A stretch of DNA of 14,377 nucleotides. Source: a virus. Its lineage: Duplodnaviria; Heunggongvirae; Uroviricota; Caudoviricetes. The notes under the pieces were generated by a model. The model ran no database searches and was not told the origin of the DNA. It saw only the letters and a program-made list of their open reading frames with translations. Shown here piece after piece: positions 1,781 through 14,377 of the stretch (position 1 is the stretch's first letter; the number at the start of each line of letters is the position of its first letter). The DNA is taken from the IMG/VR virus record IMGVR_UViG_2675903352_000015, positions 1-14,377 of that record, one strand, 5' to 3'. The translations under genes and the position numbers were made by a program.

Positions 1781-2863
1781 TCATTTTCTCTGGCTGATCT
1801 TTACCGGATAACCATCCCGAAGATCAATTAAGTGCTCCGGTTCAGAAGCAAACCATGCATAAGATCCCCACGCCAATTCTGGTATTGCCTTTTTAAAAGG
1901 CAGAGCACTTCTGTCAATAAATGCCGTAAGGAATGCAAGATTTTTCTCGCTGAACCCAGCGTCAATAGCCAAATGAGTGAGAGTAACTTTTCGTTCCCTG
2001 TTTATAGGCCCATCTGTCGCAACTACCTCAGTGAAAACTACAAGCATATCCGAACCCGTTCGGTCCTCTCCCAAATCAATCAAAATAATATCTGGAAGTG
2101 CTTTTGAGGCATCAATATTCAGCCCCAATGCTTTTGCCAATACATCATCCTGAGCAACAACTTTATTCCCAGATTCAGACAACCAGAGCACAGTTGGATT
2201 CTTAAGAAAATTAGGAGCAAAAACTTCGATGACGGCCTTAGCTATTGTACTTGACGGGCCCGGAGCTAAAGTTCTCTTCTCTCCATTTGGGAAAGTGACG
2301 ACTACGGCATCAGCAGCAATCACTGCCCCTGATTTCAATAAACGCAATCTAGCAAGAGCGGCTTTGTTCAAATGATTTTCCTGCCAGGAACTTATTGCAC
2401 TCAGCAGCGAATCTCCTTCAAGCCCAGCATCAAAGAGTGCTGCAAAAGAGCGATTCAAACTGTAACGAGGATGAGAGGATGTGGTGGGTATACCTTTACG
2501 CTCAACAATTGCATTGCAAGGTATTAGGCCATTTTTTATAGTTTCATCACGTATTGGCTCACGCGTATTTTCCGCATACCATGCATCAGCAGGCCTTATC
2601 TTTTGTTTAGAGAAAGTCATCTTTACCCAACTTTCTCTGGACGCATCATCAGTAAGAGCAGCCTGTGAATCTCCCATACTTACAACCTGGCTGGGCCTTA
2701 TCCATCGCCCCAGCCCCTCAACCGCACCAGCATAAAACATGACAAAAATTGTTTTTGCAGCTATTTCCCGAATTAAATATCCACGATTCTCAGTCCCTTC
2801 AGGGAAAATTAATGGTAATCTTTCCCGGATAACATTCAATGGGGGAACAACAGGCAGATTCAT
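1781..2863 (-). CDS. putative type II restriction endonuclease (resembles BsuBI/PstI family, from memory)
   Basis: 360-aa ORF directly downstream of the methyltransferase on the same strand, with ATGA start/stop overlap at 2860..2863; AT-rich composition; size and context match REases paired with Eco57I/PstI-type methyltransferases. Family assignment is from recollection only. Confidence 0.6.
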   Translation of the reverse strand: MNLPVVPPLNVIRERLPLIFPEGTENRGYLIREIAAKTIFVMFYAGAVEGLGRWIRPSQVVSMGDSQAALTDDASRESWVKMTFSKQKIRPADAWYAENTREPIRDETIKNGLIPCNAIVERKGIPTTSSHPRYSLNRSFAALFDAGLEGDSLLSAISSWQENHLNKAALARLRLLKSGAVIAADAVVVTFPNGEKRTLAPGPSSTIAKAVIEVFAPNFLKNPTVLWLSESGNKVVAQDDVLAKALGLNIDASKALPDIILIDLGEDRTGSDMLVVFTEVVATDGPINRERKVTLTHLAIDAGFSEKNLAFLTAFIDRSALPFKKAIPELAWGSYAWFASEPEHLIDLRDGYPVKISQRK

Positions 2864-4692
2864 GCAATCATCACTCCATAGAAACCAGCGATAGTTCTCT
2901 CAATAATCCGTCTGTGGACGCCGGCATCAATTAACGATTGAATCTCCATCACCTGCTCCAGAGAAGGCAACGGGATTGAATTCAATTCATAGGCCGAAAC
3001 AGCAACACTTCCGCTTATACACCTGAACGCCCGATCGACAACATGCGAATTAAGTAGCATATCAATAACATCAGGGCGAACCGCAGAGAACAATCCGTTT
3101 GAATACACAATATTAATATGGTTTTCAACTACTACGCCACCAGTTTCATCTATAAATCCCTGAGGTAAAATCGCAGCTAAAATCCTTCTGTCCTGCTCCT
3201 TCGATGTTGTCCGCTGAACAAGCACACATTCAGATTTTGTCACAAGGAAACCCTGTTGTGGGGTTATATCGATATAGGGAACATGATTTTTTCTGTCTGC
3301 GCTAAAACGGAAACCAGCTGAAGTTATTGATTCCGCCCAGACTAATGGATAGCTATTTTTTCCTTTCGTCGTACGCAACTGCGACTTAAATCGATTCCAG
3401 ACTAACTGACCTGTAGAGACTGAGTATCCCAGATCAGCTAAACGCGTAGACATCTGTTTTAATACATTAAGAAAACAAGCATCATCTTTAACTCGTGGCA
3501 AAAGCCACGTTGCTCCACCTTTTTCTATATCAACATTACCTATTTTCTCAATTTTTGCTTTGTTCAACCCCTTAGGGACAAGTGAGGATACCTGGGCCCG
3601 AACTTTATGTTCTCCCGCCTTGAATGCTGTCAACATTGTTTCCTGGAGAACATCGTCAAAGACCCCATCCCTGTCAGCGACGAAATCAAGGGCATACGGA
3701 GTAGTTTTTTCGGTCAAAAGGGTTCGCAGCGCGGTGAAATACTGCCCACCAAGAAAAGAAGTTGGCGTAAGAAATGCAATAACTCCTGTTTTCTCTTTAA
3801 CCATGCGAACAGCTAAGTCGGTGAACAATCCATATAGATTTGCATGACCAAATAACGAACGAGAATATTTTTCTCTCGTTTTAATATCGAGAGTGACACG
3901 TCCGTAAGGCGGATTCCCTACCACAAGATCATAACCAGAAATTTTATCTTGCTGAAGCGCATCAGCAACAATAATTGTATCTTCAGGCAATCTACGTTTT
4001 ACCTTTACACATAGTGGCATTAGTACAGATTCGAGCAATACCAAACTCATCCAAGCCGCAAATGGATCGATTTCTATCCCCTTTAAACGACGACTGATTC
4101 TCCTCAACATCCATTCAGGGGAAGACCCCTTGTCTTTTTTTAACATTCGAATGGCTACTGGTGCCAAAAATGCACCGCCACCACACGCAGGATCAATAAC
4201 CGATGCATGAGAAAAATCAACACCAGACTTTTCAGCCAGGTCCAAGAGACGCGCTACCAAAGGTGGGGGGGTATAGTAAGCCCCCAATTCCGAACGGTAA
4301 GCGGATGGCAGCATTACCGTATAAATTGACCCAATCAGATATCCAGCGTCCTCCGCCGGAAATTGAGCAATAAGCTCACCTGTTCGTTCAGCGAGCTCGC
4401 GTGCATCACATGGAATGTCTTCTATGTAAACAGTGTGCGGTACTGCCCTCATTTTAATGCTGCTTTTTTGCTTTTTTGCAAGGGTATCCCAATATGCAGC
4501 TACGATGCTGAAGCAGTATGAGCGGGCATGCATCAACCTTGACTGCCCGGTTTTGTAATTGCCCGCATAACCTTTGGCCATGGCTTTACAAGTTTGATAT
4601 CTTTCCAGATTAGAAAACTCATTATCTGTAAAAAAATCAAAATGTTGCACATTCATAATGTAAAATCCTAATGTATCAAACATGCGGGCCAT
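2860..4692 (-). CDS. gamma-class N6-adenine DNA methyltransferase (Eco57I/PstI-like modification subunit)
   Basis: 610 aa; motif X GAYYTPP, motif I DPACGGGAFL (SAM binding), motif IV NPPYGRV in gamma-class order. Start choice is uncertain (ATG 4692 with weak SD; internal ATG at MNVQHF has an AGGA upstream). Confidence 0.85.
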   Translation of the reverse strand: MARMFDTLGFYIMNVQHFDFFTDNEFSNLERYQTCKAMAKGYAGNYKTGQSRLMHARSYCFSIVAAYWDTLAKKQKSSIKMRAVPHTVYIEDIPCDARELAERTGELIAQFPAEDAGYLIGSIYTVMLPSAYRSELGAYYTPPPLVARLLDLAEKSGVDFSHASVIDPACGGGAFLAPVAIRMLKKDKGSSPEWMLRRISRRLKGIEIDPFAAWMSLVLLESVLMPLCVKVKRRLPEDTIIVADALQQDKISGYDLVVGNPPYGRVTLDIKTREKYSRSLFGHANLYGLFTDLAVRMVKEKTGVIAFLTPTSFLGGQYFTALRTLLTEKTTPYALDFVADRDGVFDDVLQETMLTAFKAGEHKVRAQVSSLVPKGLNKAKIEKIGNVDIEKGGATWLLPRVKDDACFLNVLKQMSTRLADLGYSVSTGQLVWNRFKSQLRTTKGKNSYPLVWAESITSAGFRFSADRKNHVPYIDITPQQGFLVTKSECVLVQRTTSKEQDRRILAAILPQGFIDETGGVVVENHINIVYSNGLFSAVRPDVIDMLLNSHVVDRAFRCISGSVAVSAYELNSIPLPSLEQVMEIQSLIDAGVHRRIIERTIAGFYGVMIA

Positions 4693-6770: not shown

Positions 6771-7196
6771 TCAATGCGCCACCACGGCATTTCCCGCCGG
6801 ACCACCACGATTCATCTGATTGAAACCAGCAATTACCACCGCGACAAGTTCATCAGCGTCTCTCACCAGTCGTTCATGCGTATCCACCAGTTCCCGAAAA
6901 TAATCGGAACTGTGGCTGCGCATCCAGGCCACCAGCGGAGGTGGCATTGCCTTTTCGATCGCTGGTAACAAAGCCTGAATTTTTTTAACCGCATCAGGGG
7001 TGTCTTTCTCCACCCAGCGGAAAATTTTCTGAGTATTGCGAGCCAGGGCTTCCGGATGGCTGTCGTCATACAGTTCCGGGAATGTCATACCCAGCTCAAA
7101 ATAAGCCCGGGTTATTTCAGCTGCCGGAACTTTTTCACCGTCCGGACGCGCCCAGGCATTCATCGCCATGCGGATGTGTTCATGCTTGATTTTCAT
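6771..7196 (-). CDS. YdaT-like protein (Rac prophage family; role assignment from context)
   Basis: 141 aa; overlaps the end of the upstream Cro-like gene by 17 bp; SD GGGGA upstream; position and size match Rac ydaT. Confidence 0.5.
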   Translation of the reverse strand: MKIKHEHIRMAMNAWARPDGEKVPAAEITRAYFELGMTFPELYDDSHPEALARNTQKIFRWVEKDTPDAVKKIQALLPAIEKAMPPPLVAWMRSHSSDYFRELVDTHERLVRDADELVAVVIAGFNQMNRGGPAGNAVVAH

Positions 7197-7452
7197 GAAT
7201 CATCCCCGGTGTATTTGGTGTGTTAACTTTACATCCAACAGGTAAACCGTCGGTTGGGTTAGGATAAATATCAGGGCGAATTTCATGCGGGGTAACTTCC
7301 CACTTCATTAGCTGGCATAACGGAATTACCTGCTTTGGGGGAACACCAAAGCTAAACCATTGCCAAACAGTCTGTTGAGCAACTCCCATATAACGACCTA
7401 TTTCAGCTTGAGTGTGTTTCTGCCTAATTTTTTCGCGAGTGCTATCTAGCAT
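7180..7452 (-). CDS. Cro/YdaS-like HTH transcriptional regulator
   Basis: 90 aa; strong SD (GAGGAGGG) before ATG 7452; HTH segment TQAEIGRYMGVAQQTVWQW; divergent from the repressor gene across an operator-bearing intergenic region. Confidence 0.65.
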   Translation of the reverse strand: MLDSTREKIRQKHTQAEIGRYMGVAQQTVWQWFSFGVPPKQVIPLCQLMKWEVTPHEIRPDIYPNPTDGLPVGCKVNTPNTPGMIHENQA

Positions 7453-7561: not shown

Positions 7562-7963
7562 ATGATGAACGCCCTAGAAGTATCTATGTACAGAATCAGC
7601 AAGCTTCTTCAGGAAACTGGATGGAGCCAGGCTGAGCTTGCCCGTAGAATTGGTGTGACACAGCAAACTGTTCAACAATGGGTCAGCGGTAAGGCAACAC
7701 CTAAAGCCTCAAGTTTGGATAAACTGGTTGAGGTTACAGGGCATCCATTGCATTGGTTTTTATTGCCTCCTGAAGAGAGGGAGCAAATTTTCACCCCTGA
7801 TACGATGAAAATTGGTCCTCGCCAACGCGAACTGCTCCAAGCTTTTAGTGCGTTTCCTGAGGAAGACCAGGAAAAAATGCTTCAAGAAATCAAAGACAAG
7901 AAAAAATCAATGGAAGAAACCATTGCCCGATGGTTAGCGGCACAAAAAAGCCGCCTGGCGTGA
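7562..7963 (+). CDS. CI/RacR-like prophage repressor (XRE-family HTH, no S24 peptidase domain)
   Basis: 133 aa; HTH SQAELARRIGVTQQTVQQWVSGKATP; sits between the two operator-bearing divergent promoters in the same arrangement as lambda cI; no C-terminal Ser/Lys autocleavage motif recognised. Confidence 0.7.
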   Translation: MMNALEVSMYRISKLLQETGWSQAELARRIGVTQQTVQQWVSGKATPKASSLDKLVEVTGHPLHWFLLPPEEREQIFTPDTMKIGPRQRELLQAFSAFPEEDQEKMLQEIKDKKKSMEETIARWLAAQKSRLA

Positions 7964-10590: not shown

Positions 10591-13071
10591 ATGAGTAAAG
10601 TCTTTATTTGCGCCGCCATTCCGGACGAACAGGCAACAGCAGAAGGCGCCAAACCTGTGGCCACTGCCATTGAAGCAGGCGACGAACGCCGGGCAAGAGC
10701 CAAATTTAGCTGGTTATTTCTGGAACAATACCCGGAAGCTCAGGACTGTGCTTATAAATTTCTTGTCTGCGAGGATAAACCCGGCATGGCCCGCCCTGCT
10801 CTCGATTCCTGGGATTCCGAATATATGCAGGAAAACCGCTGGAATGAGGAGTCGGCTTCCTTTGTTCCGGTCGACCCTGAACCGGACGCAGAAATTGTTA
10901 ACTTTAATCAGTTATCTGACGACAAGCGGGCTGCTGTCCTTGTCAGGTTCGGTACACATGAAAACATCACCGTGGATATGGTCATCAATGCAAGCGGGCT
11001 TCTCGGCGATGACGAGATGACGACTTTTGATGGACACCTCGCTGAAGCAATTATCCGGACCAGAGAAATTAACGCCATGTATCCAGAGCGTCAGATTGAG
11101 TACATCAACGATGCCAGACGTGATTTAAAACCAACAGCCAAATGGCCCGACGTTCAGGCGTATTTTCTCGAACGTAAAAAACGCATGGAAAAGGAGCGCA
11201 AAGAAGGTGGCGCATATAATTCCGTCGTCGATCTTGCCCGCGCCAGAGTCAACCGGCAAGGCACTGAAAACTCTGCAGGAAAAACTGACTCCGTAACTGC
11301 TGTCATTCGTCGCGAATACAGGCAGACATGGAAAACACTGGATGAAGAACTGGCCTACGCTTTCTGGCCTGGTGATATTGATGCCGGAAACATTGACGGC
11401 AGCATCCATCGCTGGGCAAAAAATGAAGTTATCGACAAAGATCGCGAAGACTGGAAGCGTATTTCCGCATCAATGCGCAAACAACCTGATGCCGTTCGCT
11501 ACGACCGTCAGACTATTTTTGGCCTTGTCCGTGAGCGTCCGATCGACATTCACAAAGATCCCGTGGCGCTGAACAAATACATCACTGAATACCTGGCGAC
11601 AAAGGGCGTGTTTGAGGATGAAGAAACAGACCAGAGCACTGCTGATATTCTCCAGCCGTCAGCAGCACAAACTGATGCAGTGGAAACTGAAGTATCTGAT
11701 ACCCAAAAAAATGAAAGCGCGCTGGAAACTGAACCATCTGTAGAGCGTGAGGGGCCGTTCTACTTCCTCTTCACCGATAAGGATGGCGAAAAATATGGTC
11801 GTGCAAACAAACTTTCTGGTCTGAATAAGGCGCTGGCTGCAGGGGCTACTGAAATCACGAAAGAAGAATATTTTGCCCGTAAAAACGGCACGTACTCAGG
11901 TTCACAACAAAATACTGGTGCATCTGACACGACCGCACAACCAGAGCCGGTAAAAGTTACCGCTGACGAAGTAAACAAAATTATGCAGGCAGCCAATATC
12001 AGCCAGCCTGACGCCGATAAGTTGCTTGCTGCCTCTCGCGGAGAATTTGTTGCAGGGATTAGCGACCCGAATGATCCGAAATGGGTGAAGGGGATTGAAA
12101 CCCGCGATTCTGTAAACCAGAACCAGCAAGAATCGGAACAGAACGACCAGAAAGCGGAACAAAACAGTCAAAATGCGTTACAAAACGAGCCAGAAACGAA
12201 ACAACCTGAGGCAGTAGCGCAACAGGAACCGGAAAAAGTCTGCACCGCCTGCGGTCAGAGCGGTGGCGGCAACTGCCCTGATTGTGGCGCGGTGATGGGC
12301 GACGCAACATACCAGGAAACATTCGATGAAGAGAATCAGGTTGAAGTTCAGGAAAATGATCCGGAGGAAATGGAAGGCGCTGAACATCCACACAAGGAGA
12401 ATGCTGGCAGCGCTCAGGACCACGCCAGCGATAATGAAACTGGTGAGACGGCAGATCCCTTAATTGTGGTGAACGGTCATCACGTTATCACATCCACCAG
12501 CAGAGTGTGGTACCACCTGATGATCGACCTTGAAACAATGGGAACCAACACCAATGCGCCCATCGTGGTTATTGGTGCGGTTTTCTTCGACCCACAAACA
12601 GGGGAAATCGGGCCAGTATTTTATATCGTTATCAGTCTGACTGACGCAATGAATACAGGGGCTGCTCCTGACGGTGGAACCATCAAATGGTGGCTGAAGC
12701 AGTCCAGTGAAGCCAGAGCTGCCATTTTAACAGACCAGGTAAAACTGAAGGATGCCCTTTCGCGGTTTCGGGAGTTCATCAACGAATACTCAGATGAAAA
12801 ATTCGTTCAGGTATGGGGTAATGGTGCAACTTTCGATAACGCAATTTTGCGCACCTCATACGAACGTCTGGACATCCCCTGCCCGTGGCGCTACCACAAC
12901 GATCGCGATGTACGCACAATCGTTGAGCTGGGAAAAACAATCGACTTTGATGCTAGAACCGTTATTCCATTCGAAGGCGTTCGCCACAATGCACTGGATG
13001 ACGCCCGTCACCAGGCAAAATACGTTTCAGCAATCTGGCAAAAACTGATCCCGAATCCGGTTGATTTTTAA
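10591..13071 (+). CDS. RecE-like prophage exonuclease: RecE-type N-terminal/central region and Cys4 zinc ribbon fused to a DnaQ-like DEDDh 3'-5' exonuclease domain
   Basis: 826 aa; GAGGT 8 nt upstream. Segment DKLLAASRGEFVAGISDPNDPKWVKGI...CTACGQSGGGNCPDCGAVMGDATYQETFDEE closely matches Rac RecE as I recall it. C-terminus has DEDDh motifs: MIDLETMG (D646, E648), WGNGATFDNAIL (D749), HNALDDARH (H799, D803/D804). Confidence 0.8.
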   Translation: MSKVFICAAIPDEQATAEGAKPVATAIEAGDERRARAKFSWLFLEQYPEAQDCAYKFLVCEDKPGMARPALDSWDSEYMQENRWNEESASFVPVDPEPDAEIVNFNQLSDDKRAAVLVRFGTHENITVDMVINASGLLGDDEMTTFDGHLAEAIIRTREINAMYPERQIEYINDARRDLKPTAKWPDVQAYFLERKKRMEKERKEGGAYNSVVDLARARVNRQGTENSAGKTDSVTAVIRREYRQTWKTLDEELAYAFWPGDIDAGNIDGSIHRWAKNEVIDKDREDWKRISASMRKQPDAVRYDRQTIFGLVRERPIDIHKDPVALNKYITEYLATKGVFEDEETDQSTADILQPSAAQTDAVETEVSDTQKNESALETEPSVEREGPFYFLFTDKDGEKYGRANKLSGLNKALAAGATEITKEEYFARKNGTYSGSQQNTGASDTTAQPEPVKVTADEVNKIMQAANISQPDADKLLAASRGEFVAGISDPNDPKWVKGIETRDSVNQNQQESEQNDQKAEQNSQNALQNEPETKQPEAVAQQEPEKVCTACGQSGGGNCPDCGAVMGDATYQETFDEENQVEVQENDPEEMEGAEHPHKENAGSAQDHASDNETGETADPLIVVNGHHVITSTSRVWYHLMIDLETMGTNTNAPIVVIGAVFFDPQTGEIGPVFYIVISLTDAMNTGAAPDGGTIKWWLKQSSEARAAILTDQVKLKDALSRFREFINEYSDEKFVQVWGNGATFDNAILRTSYERLDIPCPWRYHNDRDVRTIVELGKTIDFDARTVIPFEGVRHNALDDARHQAKYVSAIWQKLIPNPVDF

Positions 13072-13137: not shown

Positions 13138-13389
13138 ATGTACGAATTAACTCTATCGCCAGCAGAGATTCAAGAGATCACGAAATACGAGCGATACACA
13201 AAACAGCAACACCAGTTAAGGCTGCACGGTATCCCATTTGTAATCGGTCCTAAAAACGAACCAATAGTTCTTCGCAGGGATATTCCACACGGACTGACTA
13301 CGATGCCAAAAGCACCTGAACTAGTTTCCGCTGAACCCGATTTTGAGGCGCTGAACAATGGGAAGACCAAGAAAAAACAAAAAAGATAA
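13138..13389 (+). CDS. xis: excisionase (lambda Xis-like)
   Basis: 83 aa; N-terminus MYELTL and lysine-rich C-terminus NNGKTKKKQKR resemble lambda Xis (MYLTL...NGKKAKS) from memory; overlaps the integrase start by 32 bp as in lambda. Confidence 0.55.
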   Translation: MYELTLSPAEIQEITKYERYTKQQHQLRLHGIPFVIGPKNEPIVLRRDIPHGLTTMPKAPELVSAEPDFEALNNGKTKKKQKR

Positions 13390-14377
13390 TGCACTACCAC
13401 CGCGTGTTAGATCGAATGGTTACAGTTACGTGTGGAAACCCGAAGGAAGCACAAGAACTATAGGGCTCGGAAGAGTACGGGAAACCAGCGTAGCTAAAGT
13501 CTGGCAAAATTATGAACTGGAAAAAGCAAAACTCCACAACATAATGACCGTCGCTAAATTATGGCACATGTTTATGGACTCCCCTGCATTTACAGAACTG
13601 GCACCCCGAACCCAAAAAGATTATCGACAACATCAGAGGGCGTTGCTGGCGGTATTCGGTAAAGTGCTTGCTGATAATGTAAAAATTGAGCAAGTAAGAA
13701 TTTTCATGGATAAGCGGGGACTTGAGAGCAAGACCCAGGCAAACCATGAGCTGGCAAGCCTGAGTCGCGTATACGGATGGGGATATGAGCGTGGGTATGT
13801 GAAAAATAATCCATGCAAAGGCGTCAGAAAATTCACGCTTAAAGCCCGCACTGTTTACATAACCGATGAACAGTATGCGGCGATATACGCGGAAGCAATT
13901 CCACAGTTACGCATTGCAATGGAGATTTCCTATCTTTGTGCGGCAAGGCTCGGTGATGTTCTCGAGCTGAAATGGCAGGATATTATGGATAAAGGGATCT
14001 ACATTGAGCAAAACAAAACAGGCACCAAACAAATCAAGGAATGGTCTCCGCGATTACGTACGGCGATCCAGTTAGCCCGAAATGTATCTTCCGGCATATG
14101 CGGGTATGTGATCAGCACAACCAAAGGCGGGAAAGTCATCGCTAAAACGCTGAACAACTGGTGGAATCAGGCTAAACGCGCAGCCGAGCAAAAAGCAGGC
14201 GTTCCGTTCGGATGTAATTTTCATGACATAAAAGCCAAAGGGATTTCAGATTATGAAGGCAGCAGCCGCGACAAACAAATTTTCAGTGGGCATAAAACAG
14301 AAAACCAGGTGTTGATTTATGATCGCAAAACAAAAATCACCCCAACACTGGATTTGCCGCTTGTGGTCAGTAAGTAG
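13358..14377 (+). CDS. int: tyrosine integrase, lambda Int family
   Basis: 339 aa; N-terminal MGRPRK...LPP...NGY like lambda Int; box I Arg (AARLGDVLELKW); box II FHDIK...SGHK...LIYDRK with candidate catalytic Tyr; stop codon TAG is the last three bases of the window. Confidence 0.9.
   Translation: MGRPRKNKKDNALPPRVRSNGYSYVWKPEGSTRTIGLGRVRETSVAKVWQNYELEKAKLHNIMTVAKLWHMFMDSPAFTELAPRTQKDYRQHQRALLAVFGKVLADNVKIEQVRIFMDKRGLESKTQANHELASLSRVYGWGYERGYVKNNPCKGVRKFTLKARTVYITDEQYAAIYAEAIPQLRIAMEISYLCAARLGDVLELKWQDIMDKGIYIEQNKTGTKQIKEWSPRLRTAIQLARNVSSGICGYVISTTKGGKVIAKTLNNWWNQAKRAAEQKAGVPFGCNFHDIKAKGISDYEGSSRDKQIFSGHKTENQVLIYDRKTKITPTLDLPLVVSK

Follow-up and report, generated by a model that had tools for sequence, protein, structure and literature searches.

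The integrase (Int) encoded at the end of the window (the whole stretch of 14,377 nucleotides of viral DNA that was analysed) is very probably a functional tyrosine integrase of the lambda-type heterobivalent kind, from a lambdoid prophage of the Sp4/CP-933M/Evi type, in which Lys292 takes the place of the second catalytic arginine (Arg II). This lysine is ancestral in a large clade of gammaproteobacterial integrases, where selection has maintained it, and is not a lesion of one copy. A sequence-only reading of the window had noticed the substitution and offered two interpretations: a catalytically impaired enzyme, consistent with a cryptic or immobilised prophage, or an unusual variant. The direct evidence on this point comprises the alignment, the inventory of active-site residues, clade-wide conservation, purifying selection, recombination products and a lambda-like fold. 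Lysine at Arg II is already recorded in the literature, and Int carries a known, conserved and functional variant found in a common E. coli prophage type.

The int gene is the last ORF of the window and its stop codon ends at the final base (Table 1). Its product scores 31.2 bits with the catalytic-domain profile PF00589 (cut-off 27.1) and covers positions 3-167 of the 172 in the profile; this profile and the fold place it in the tyrosine recombinase superfamily. A phmmer search of the PDB aligns the protein with full-length lambda Int (1z1b; E-value: 4e-18, Int residues 1-318 on lambda residues 1-339) at a low identity of 23-25%. The arm-binding domain searched on its own matches 1kjk with an E-value of 0.14. 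An AlphaFold2 (AF2) model built from 38 clade members (pLDDT 95, pTM 0.81) gives this domain three strands and a helix (E17-19, E23-26, E35-39 and H45-60). The top Foldseek match of the model is again lambda Int (1z1b), with a TM score of 0.70 to the full-length protein and of 0.83 (rmsd 2.8 A) to residues 75-356; further matches include Tn1549 Int, XerA, IntI and Cre. Among solved structures, lambda Int is the best match by both sequence and fold. An arm-binding domain ahead of the core-binding and catalytic domains, as found by both phmmer and Foldseek (TM 0.70), is the lambda-type heterobivalent arrangement. NCBIfam has no model specific for Int, the sole match being a sub-threshold XerC, and an Rfam scan of the window gave no matches. 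Membership of the BPP-1 integrase subgroup, an idea taken from the class of the integrase Pal_Y-Int_1 discussed below, was rejected: Int has no significant similarity to BPP-1 Int.

The codons at positions 14222-14233 are CAT GAC ATA AAA and encode H289-D290-I291-K292, exactly the H-D-I-K with a lysine codon at 14231-14233 that the sequence-only reading had described. In the phmmer alignment, the Int segment "nfhdikakg" lies on lambda "tfhelrsls", which pairs H289 with H308 and K292 with R311. K292 also falls in the R311 column in three MAFFT alignments of different composition (lambda Int with family members), and this equivalence agrees with the structural match of the AF2 model found by Foldseek. 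All three methods agree with the earlier claim that a lysine stands in place of lambda R311, and the lysine stays at the triad position in the formal multiple alignments. Residues Y321, K220, R197, D200, H289 and H312 all align with their lambda counterparts, in keeping with superfamily membership, and complete the active-site set tabulated by Gibb et al. (PMC2943603, Table 1); the box I arginine, the downstream histidine and the tyrosine (R197, H312 and Y321) had rightly been reported as present. Among 127 aligned representatives, the K220 column holds K in 126 and the Y321 column holds Y in 121. K292 is invariant in the 38-sequence alignment of its clade. The Arg II position is thus occupied by a basic residue, though not by arginine in the strict sense; Lys292 is counted as filling it because the literature survey includes a lysine minority and lysine supports catalysis in Cre.

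Table 1. Features of the window referred to in the text
Feature	Position	Strand	Basis
int, lambda-type three-domain tyrosine integrase, 339 aa	13358..14377	+	ORF list and translation, Pfam, phmmer, AF2
N-terminal arm-binding (AB) domain, ~residues 1-60 (MGRPRKNKKDNALPPRVRSNGYSYVWKP...)	13358..13537	+	aligned to lambda Int residues 1-60
Cys194 (TGT), three residues before Arg I; Thr in canonical recombinases (TGxR)	13937..13939	+	column comparison
Arg I, R197 (AGG) = lambda R212	13946..13948	+	invariant column in alignments
Asp I, D200 (GAT) = lambda D215	13955..13957	+	RLGD on lambda RVGD; role from PMC2943603, Table 1
Catalytic Lys of beta2-beta3 hairpin, K220 (AAA) = lambda K235	14015..14017	+	EQNKTG on lambda EQSKTG
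His II, H289 (CAT) = lambda H308	14222..14224	+	phmmer and MAFFT
Lys at Arg-II position, K292 (AAA) = lambda R311	14231..14233	+	phmmer and MAFFT
K294 (AAA), second Lys two residues past Arg-II position	14237..14239	+	alignment
His III, H312 (CAT) = lambda H333	14291..14293	+	SGHK on lambda LGHK
Tyrosine nucleophile, Y321 (TAT) = lambda Y342	14318..14320	+	alignments
DUF4224 protein, 83 aa, candidate excisionase/directionality factor	13138..13389	+	Pfam DUF4224 (E-value: 1.8e-9); PHROG
Methyltransferase, 610 aa	2860-4692	-	Eco57I/N6_Mtase; PADLOC MTase_II (E-value: 7e-300)
Endonuclease, BsuBI/PstI-family, 360 aa	1781-2863	-	PADLOC REase_II (E-value: 2e-129)
90-aa regulator and YdaT-family protein, facing the repressor in the immunity region	6771-7452	-	
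HTH (CI-like) repressor, 133 aa, no peptidase domain detected	7562-7963	+	domain search
826-aa "exonuclease"	10591-13071	+	C-terminal ~180 residues: Rv2179c-like 3'-5' exoribonuclease (E-value: 1.7e-69)

An identity to lambda Int of 23-25% leaves room for an alignment artefact, in which the true box II would be shifted and an arginine would occupy the triad position. The probability of this is next to nil, as HMMER, the three MAFFT alignments and Foldseek are concordant and the F-H-D/E-hydrophobic-K/R motif is colinear with the FHD[IL]RAK of the sister clade. There is no arginine within 11 residues of K292, and the nearest ones, R274 and R304, are both out of register. The identity of the int-encoded residue at position 292 is confirmed and its alignment is unambiguous.

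Conservation of the lysine was examined at several depths. Among the 120 nearest representatives of clusters at 90% identity, which extend to 55% identity, HD[ILV]KAK is present in every full-length sequence. When 1.84 billion representatives of 50%-identity clusters were searched exhaustively with HMMER, 4,691 matched, and the best 150 of these reach ~30% identity. Besides the query and lambda Int, the set of 127 aligned sequences has 125 representatives, each 250 aa or longer, drawn from these best 150 of the 4,691. Its Arg-II column holds K in 91 sequences and R in 31 (lambda included). A neighbour-joining tree with lambda Int as the root places 90 of the 91 K sequences, the query among them, in a single pure clade, and parsimony on the same tree places only two changes in this column, with R as the root state. 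Sister sequences in the R clade read FHD[IL]RAK, a colinear motif in which R versus K is the only difference.

Scanning species-representative genomes (GTDB r232, one for each species) for the K motif recovered 382 relatives, in Gammaproteobacteria. They occur in Enterobacterales, Aeromonas, Photobacterium, Shewanella and Pseudomonas; the genera include Escherichia, Citrobacter, Pluralibacter, Sodalis, Photorhabdus, Xenorhabdus, Yersinia and Serratia, as well as Morganella, Gilliamella and Idiomarina. Of the 60 K-motif loci examined, 31 have a tRNA gene at 80-165 bp downstream of int, and the genes found beside K-clade integrases are those for tRNA-Ser (UGA and CGA), tRNA-Leu (UAA and CAA) and tRNA-Cys. 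Such diversification of tRNA targets within the clade requires continued integrase function. The core is not oriented the same way with respect to int throughout the clade: most members have an intact tRNA gene just downstream on the opposite strand, and in the E. coli serT group a tRNA fragment lies beside int on the strand of int, with serT itself intact at the distal prophage end. E. albertii NBRC 107761 has a 99% identical integrase at the edge of a 10-kb contig (NZ_BBMY01000156.1), and so this integrase type occurs in more than one Escherichia species.

A second possibility is that Lys292 is not the functional equivalent of Arg II and that the scissile phosphate is reached by an arginine from another part of the fold. 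The CTnDOT integrase (IntDOT) lacks Arg I and uses another arginine in its stead (PMC8138268), and within the K clade arginine is found at position 195 in 43 of 91 members and at position 232 in 77 of 91. Such a substitute is nevertheless highly improbable in Int: no arginine column is universal in the K clade yet absent from the R clade, the query has alanine at 195 (the best candidate column), and published modelling lets lysine reach O1P. The invariance of K292 in the clade would also be unexpected of a bystander. The column that best separates the two clades is residue 194: 82 of the 91 K sequences have Cys there, and 27 of 30 R sequences have Thr. Since the switch from R to K was essentially one ancient event, this covariation of Cys194 with Lys292 is inseparable from shared ancestry. 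K294 does not divide the clades in this way; the column is K in 117 of the 127 representatives, in both K and R clades, and lambda has leucine here.

Lysine at Arg II is rare across the superfamily as a whole. In a survey of more than 12,000 tyrosine recombinases, Arg II was R in 99.1% and K in 0.5% (Gibb et al., PMC2943603, Table 1), so the sequence-only reading was fair in calling Int an unusual variant. Natural lysine at this position is also mentioned in PMC4381057. [quoted passage not shown] Among natural Arg-II-to-Lys enzymes, Pal_Y-Int_1, which its authors assign to the BPP-1-arm type, gave integration in 18.7% of the Pseudomonas cells that received the plasmid, and Pal_Y-Int_2, a second lysine-bearing integrase, failed to give integrants (PMC12884075). 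The classification of Smyshlyaev et al. describes variants of Arg I and His II; a text search of it found no mention of lysine, and lambda-related integrases are barely sampled in it. For these reasons the size of the K clade may be under-appreciated.

These precedents bear on the reading in which Lys292 cripples catalysis and leaves an impaired integrase in a cryptic or chromosome-stuck prophage. The near-universal conservation of Arg II, the ligation defect of Cre R292K and the failure of Pal_Y-Int_2 are all in its favour. Pal_Y-Int_1, with its natural lysine, integrates efficiently and is evidence on the other side, as are the results on selection and recombination that follow.

The int gene is under strong purifying selection: dN/dS among the copies of the window, phage Evi and Sakai Sp4 is 0.01-0.06 (0.016-0.056), with a dS of about 0.3-0.4. 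The gene was found in 748 of 5426 complete E. coli genomes and is full length in 742 of them, and every copy in a 30-row sample of the ranked E. coli matches is annotated as an integrase. Truncation, frameshift, relaxed selection and copy-specific loss, the marks of a decaying integrase, are absent here, the 339-aa ORF being intact and the lysine clade-wide. The K motif is also carried by isolated phages. The Int of Evi (LR597642), a coliphage obtained from infant faeces (PMC10910852), is 98.8% identical to that of the window and has the same motif. The others are vB_EcoS-689R5, ST64B and ZF40, the last of which is recorded as an "induced lysogen".

The chromosomal site can be read from closely related prophages. 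The nearest chromosomal match is CAU16175, whose int is 99.9% identical (one amino-acid difference) and belongs to a complete-looking 41.7-kb lambdoid element with a full lambdoid gene set. Both this prophage and Sakai Sp4 lie between yccA and serT and are arranged alike, with int next to yccA and the intact serT at the far prophage end. No tRNA gene was found beside int in this 99.9% identical locus, only the 3' 60-odd nt of serT being duplicated there. A four-way alignment of the empty K-12 serT attB, both CAU16175 junctions and the Evi attP reveals a 65-bp block (CGGTCTTGAAAACC...CCGCCAAATAA) common to attB, attL, attR and attP, which spans serT from the anticodon stem to just past the 3' end of the gene. 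Around this core the bacterial and phage arms are swapped exactly as in BOB' x POP' -> BOP' + POB'. These are the products of conservative attP x attB recombination, seen on loci 96-99.9% identical, the window itself ending at the int stop codon. The 96% identity of Int to ECs_1055 of Sakai Sp4 and the position of the 99.9% identical CAU16175 locus at serT-yccA assign it to the serT-targeting Sp4/CP-933M type.

Experimental data exist for Sakai Sp4, whose Int (ECs_1055) shares the motif. Circularised Sp4 and Sp14 were detected by PCR after mitomycin C treatment and their attP was sequenced, from which Asadulghani et al. concluded that the integrases are able to mediate excision (PMC2669165). 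In the same study, Sp4 circles were seen only after mitomycin C, which was attributed to regional replication driven by Sp5, and Sp4 does not figure among those whose transfer to K-12 was reported. SOS induction requires a peptidase domain that is missing from the Sp4-type repressor (PMC2669165). Sp4 is a multiply defective prophage, and its excision is weak and mitomycin-dependent.

The dependence of Sp4 circles on mitomycin C and the missing report of Sp4 transfer would also fit an impaired integrase, as would the repressors: that of the window has an HTH domain only and that of Sp4 no peptidase, so that self-induction may be limited. Impairment is still quite improbable. The lysine is invariant in the clade down to ~30% identity and across hundreds of species; dN/dS is low; Evi, ST64B, ZF40 and 689R5 share the K motif; the integration and excision products at serT are exact; and tRNA targets have diversified inside the clade. 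The suggestion of catalytic impairment in a cryptic or immobilised prophage is contradicted by the same evidence and by the Sp4 circles. The sequence-only reading had named efficient recombination as an observation that would overturn it, and recombination is demonstrated by these circles and the att sites for proteins 96-99% identical to Int.

In the preferred reading, that of a functional integrase with a lysine at Arg II, the reaction can be outlined as follows. Int would recombine attP of the phage with the 3' portion of serT, a tRNA-Ser gene, via the 65-bp identity core between serT and yccA. Its predicted active site is R197-D200-K220-H289-K292-H312-Y321. K292 would act as a working transition-state ligand, its ammonium group forming a hydrogen bond with a non-bridging oxygen of the scissile phosphate and stabilising the transition state. 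This phosphate-contact role is inferred from published work on Cre, Flp and TopIB, according to which lysine is less well placed than arginine to contact the tyrosine oxygen. Cys194 in place of Thr, together with the conserved K294 nearby, may tune the K292 pocket. The chemistry would otherwise be standard: attack by Tyr321 would give a 3'-phosphotyrosyl intermediate, followed by a Holliday junction and the second strand exchange. Presumably the neighbouring DUF4224 protein, together with host factors, determines the direction of the reaction.

The ORF for the DUF4224 protein overlaps the start of int by 32 nt. Its product matches phrog_1266 ("excisionase"; E-value: 6.5e-23) and is 96% identical to Sakai ECs_1056; the Sp4 homologue was judged to have no DNA-binding motif and to be probably non-functional (Asadulghani et al., PMC2669165). 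Upstream of it, the N-terminal ~640 residues of the 826-aa exonuclease have no Pfam match. The early region of the prophage contains a two-gene type II restriction-modification cassette (1781-4692, minus strand), which is missing from the otherwise 99.9% identical CAU16175 prophage and present in FDAARGOS_943-type prophages. The window is thus a mosaic, and none of the complete E. coli genomes contains 80% or more of it. As the Sp4-type repressor has no SOS peptidase domain (PMC2669165), the prophage may be induced by a route that does not involve RecA-mediated self-cleavage.

The lysine might also have a significance beyond retained activity. There is a slim chance that the clade with lysine at Arg II is a mechanistically distinct lambda-like sub-family, in which Lys292 and Cys194, with Lys294, have re-tuned the balance of cleavage and ligation. 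If so, its members could have, for example, a longer-lived covalent intermediate or an altered dependence on the DUF4224 partner for direction. For annotation, the lesson is that finding a lysine in place of the second "invariant" arginine is not enough to infer inactivation. Lysine at Arg II marks a large, active, tRNA-targeting clade of phage integrases in Gammaproteobacteria, which includes integrases of EHEC prophages with type III effector genes and provides natural material for the study of a tyrosine recombinase active site with Lys for Arg II. The int of the window adds nothing beyond the records for Sp4, Evi and ST64B.

Among known systems, lambda Int (1Z1B, 1Z1G, 5J0N) has the same arm-binding, core-binding and catalytic architecture as Int. 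The two differ at three positions near the active site, where lambda Arg311, Thr209 and Leu313 correspond to Lys292, Cys194 and Lys294. The lambda attB lies between gal and bio and not in a tRNA gene.

An engineered and a natural enzyme with a lysine at Arg II, Cre R292K and Pal_Y-Int_1, have kept recombination activity (PMC2943603; PMC12884075), as is proposed for Int. Cre R292K is, however, a laboratory mutant with a ligation defect. Within the K clade, the integrases of ST64B (Sb28; Salmonella) and ZF40 (Pectobacterium) are 50% and 46% identical to Int and read FHDLKAKG. Both phages are inducible and temperate, but their hosts and att sites differ from those of the window type.

The closest systems are Evi and Sakai Sp4. 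The attP of Evi carries the same 65-bp serT core, and its Int has the motif seen in the window; the Evi genome is that of a free phage and not of an integrated copy, and its int has a synonymous divergence from that of the window of ~0.32. The Int of Sp4 (CP-933M in EDL933) is likewise 339 aa long, reads HDIKAKG and differs from Int at 12 amino acids. Sp4 also has the same gene order (exonuclease, DUF4224, int) and the same serT-yccA site as the window type, whereas its cargo differs, for example in the BsuBI/PstI-type restriction-modification cassette of the window prophage.
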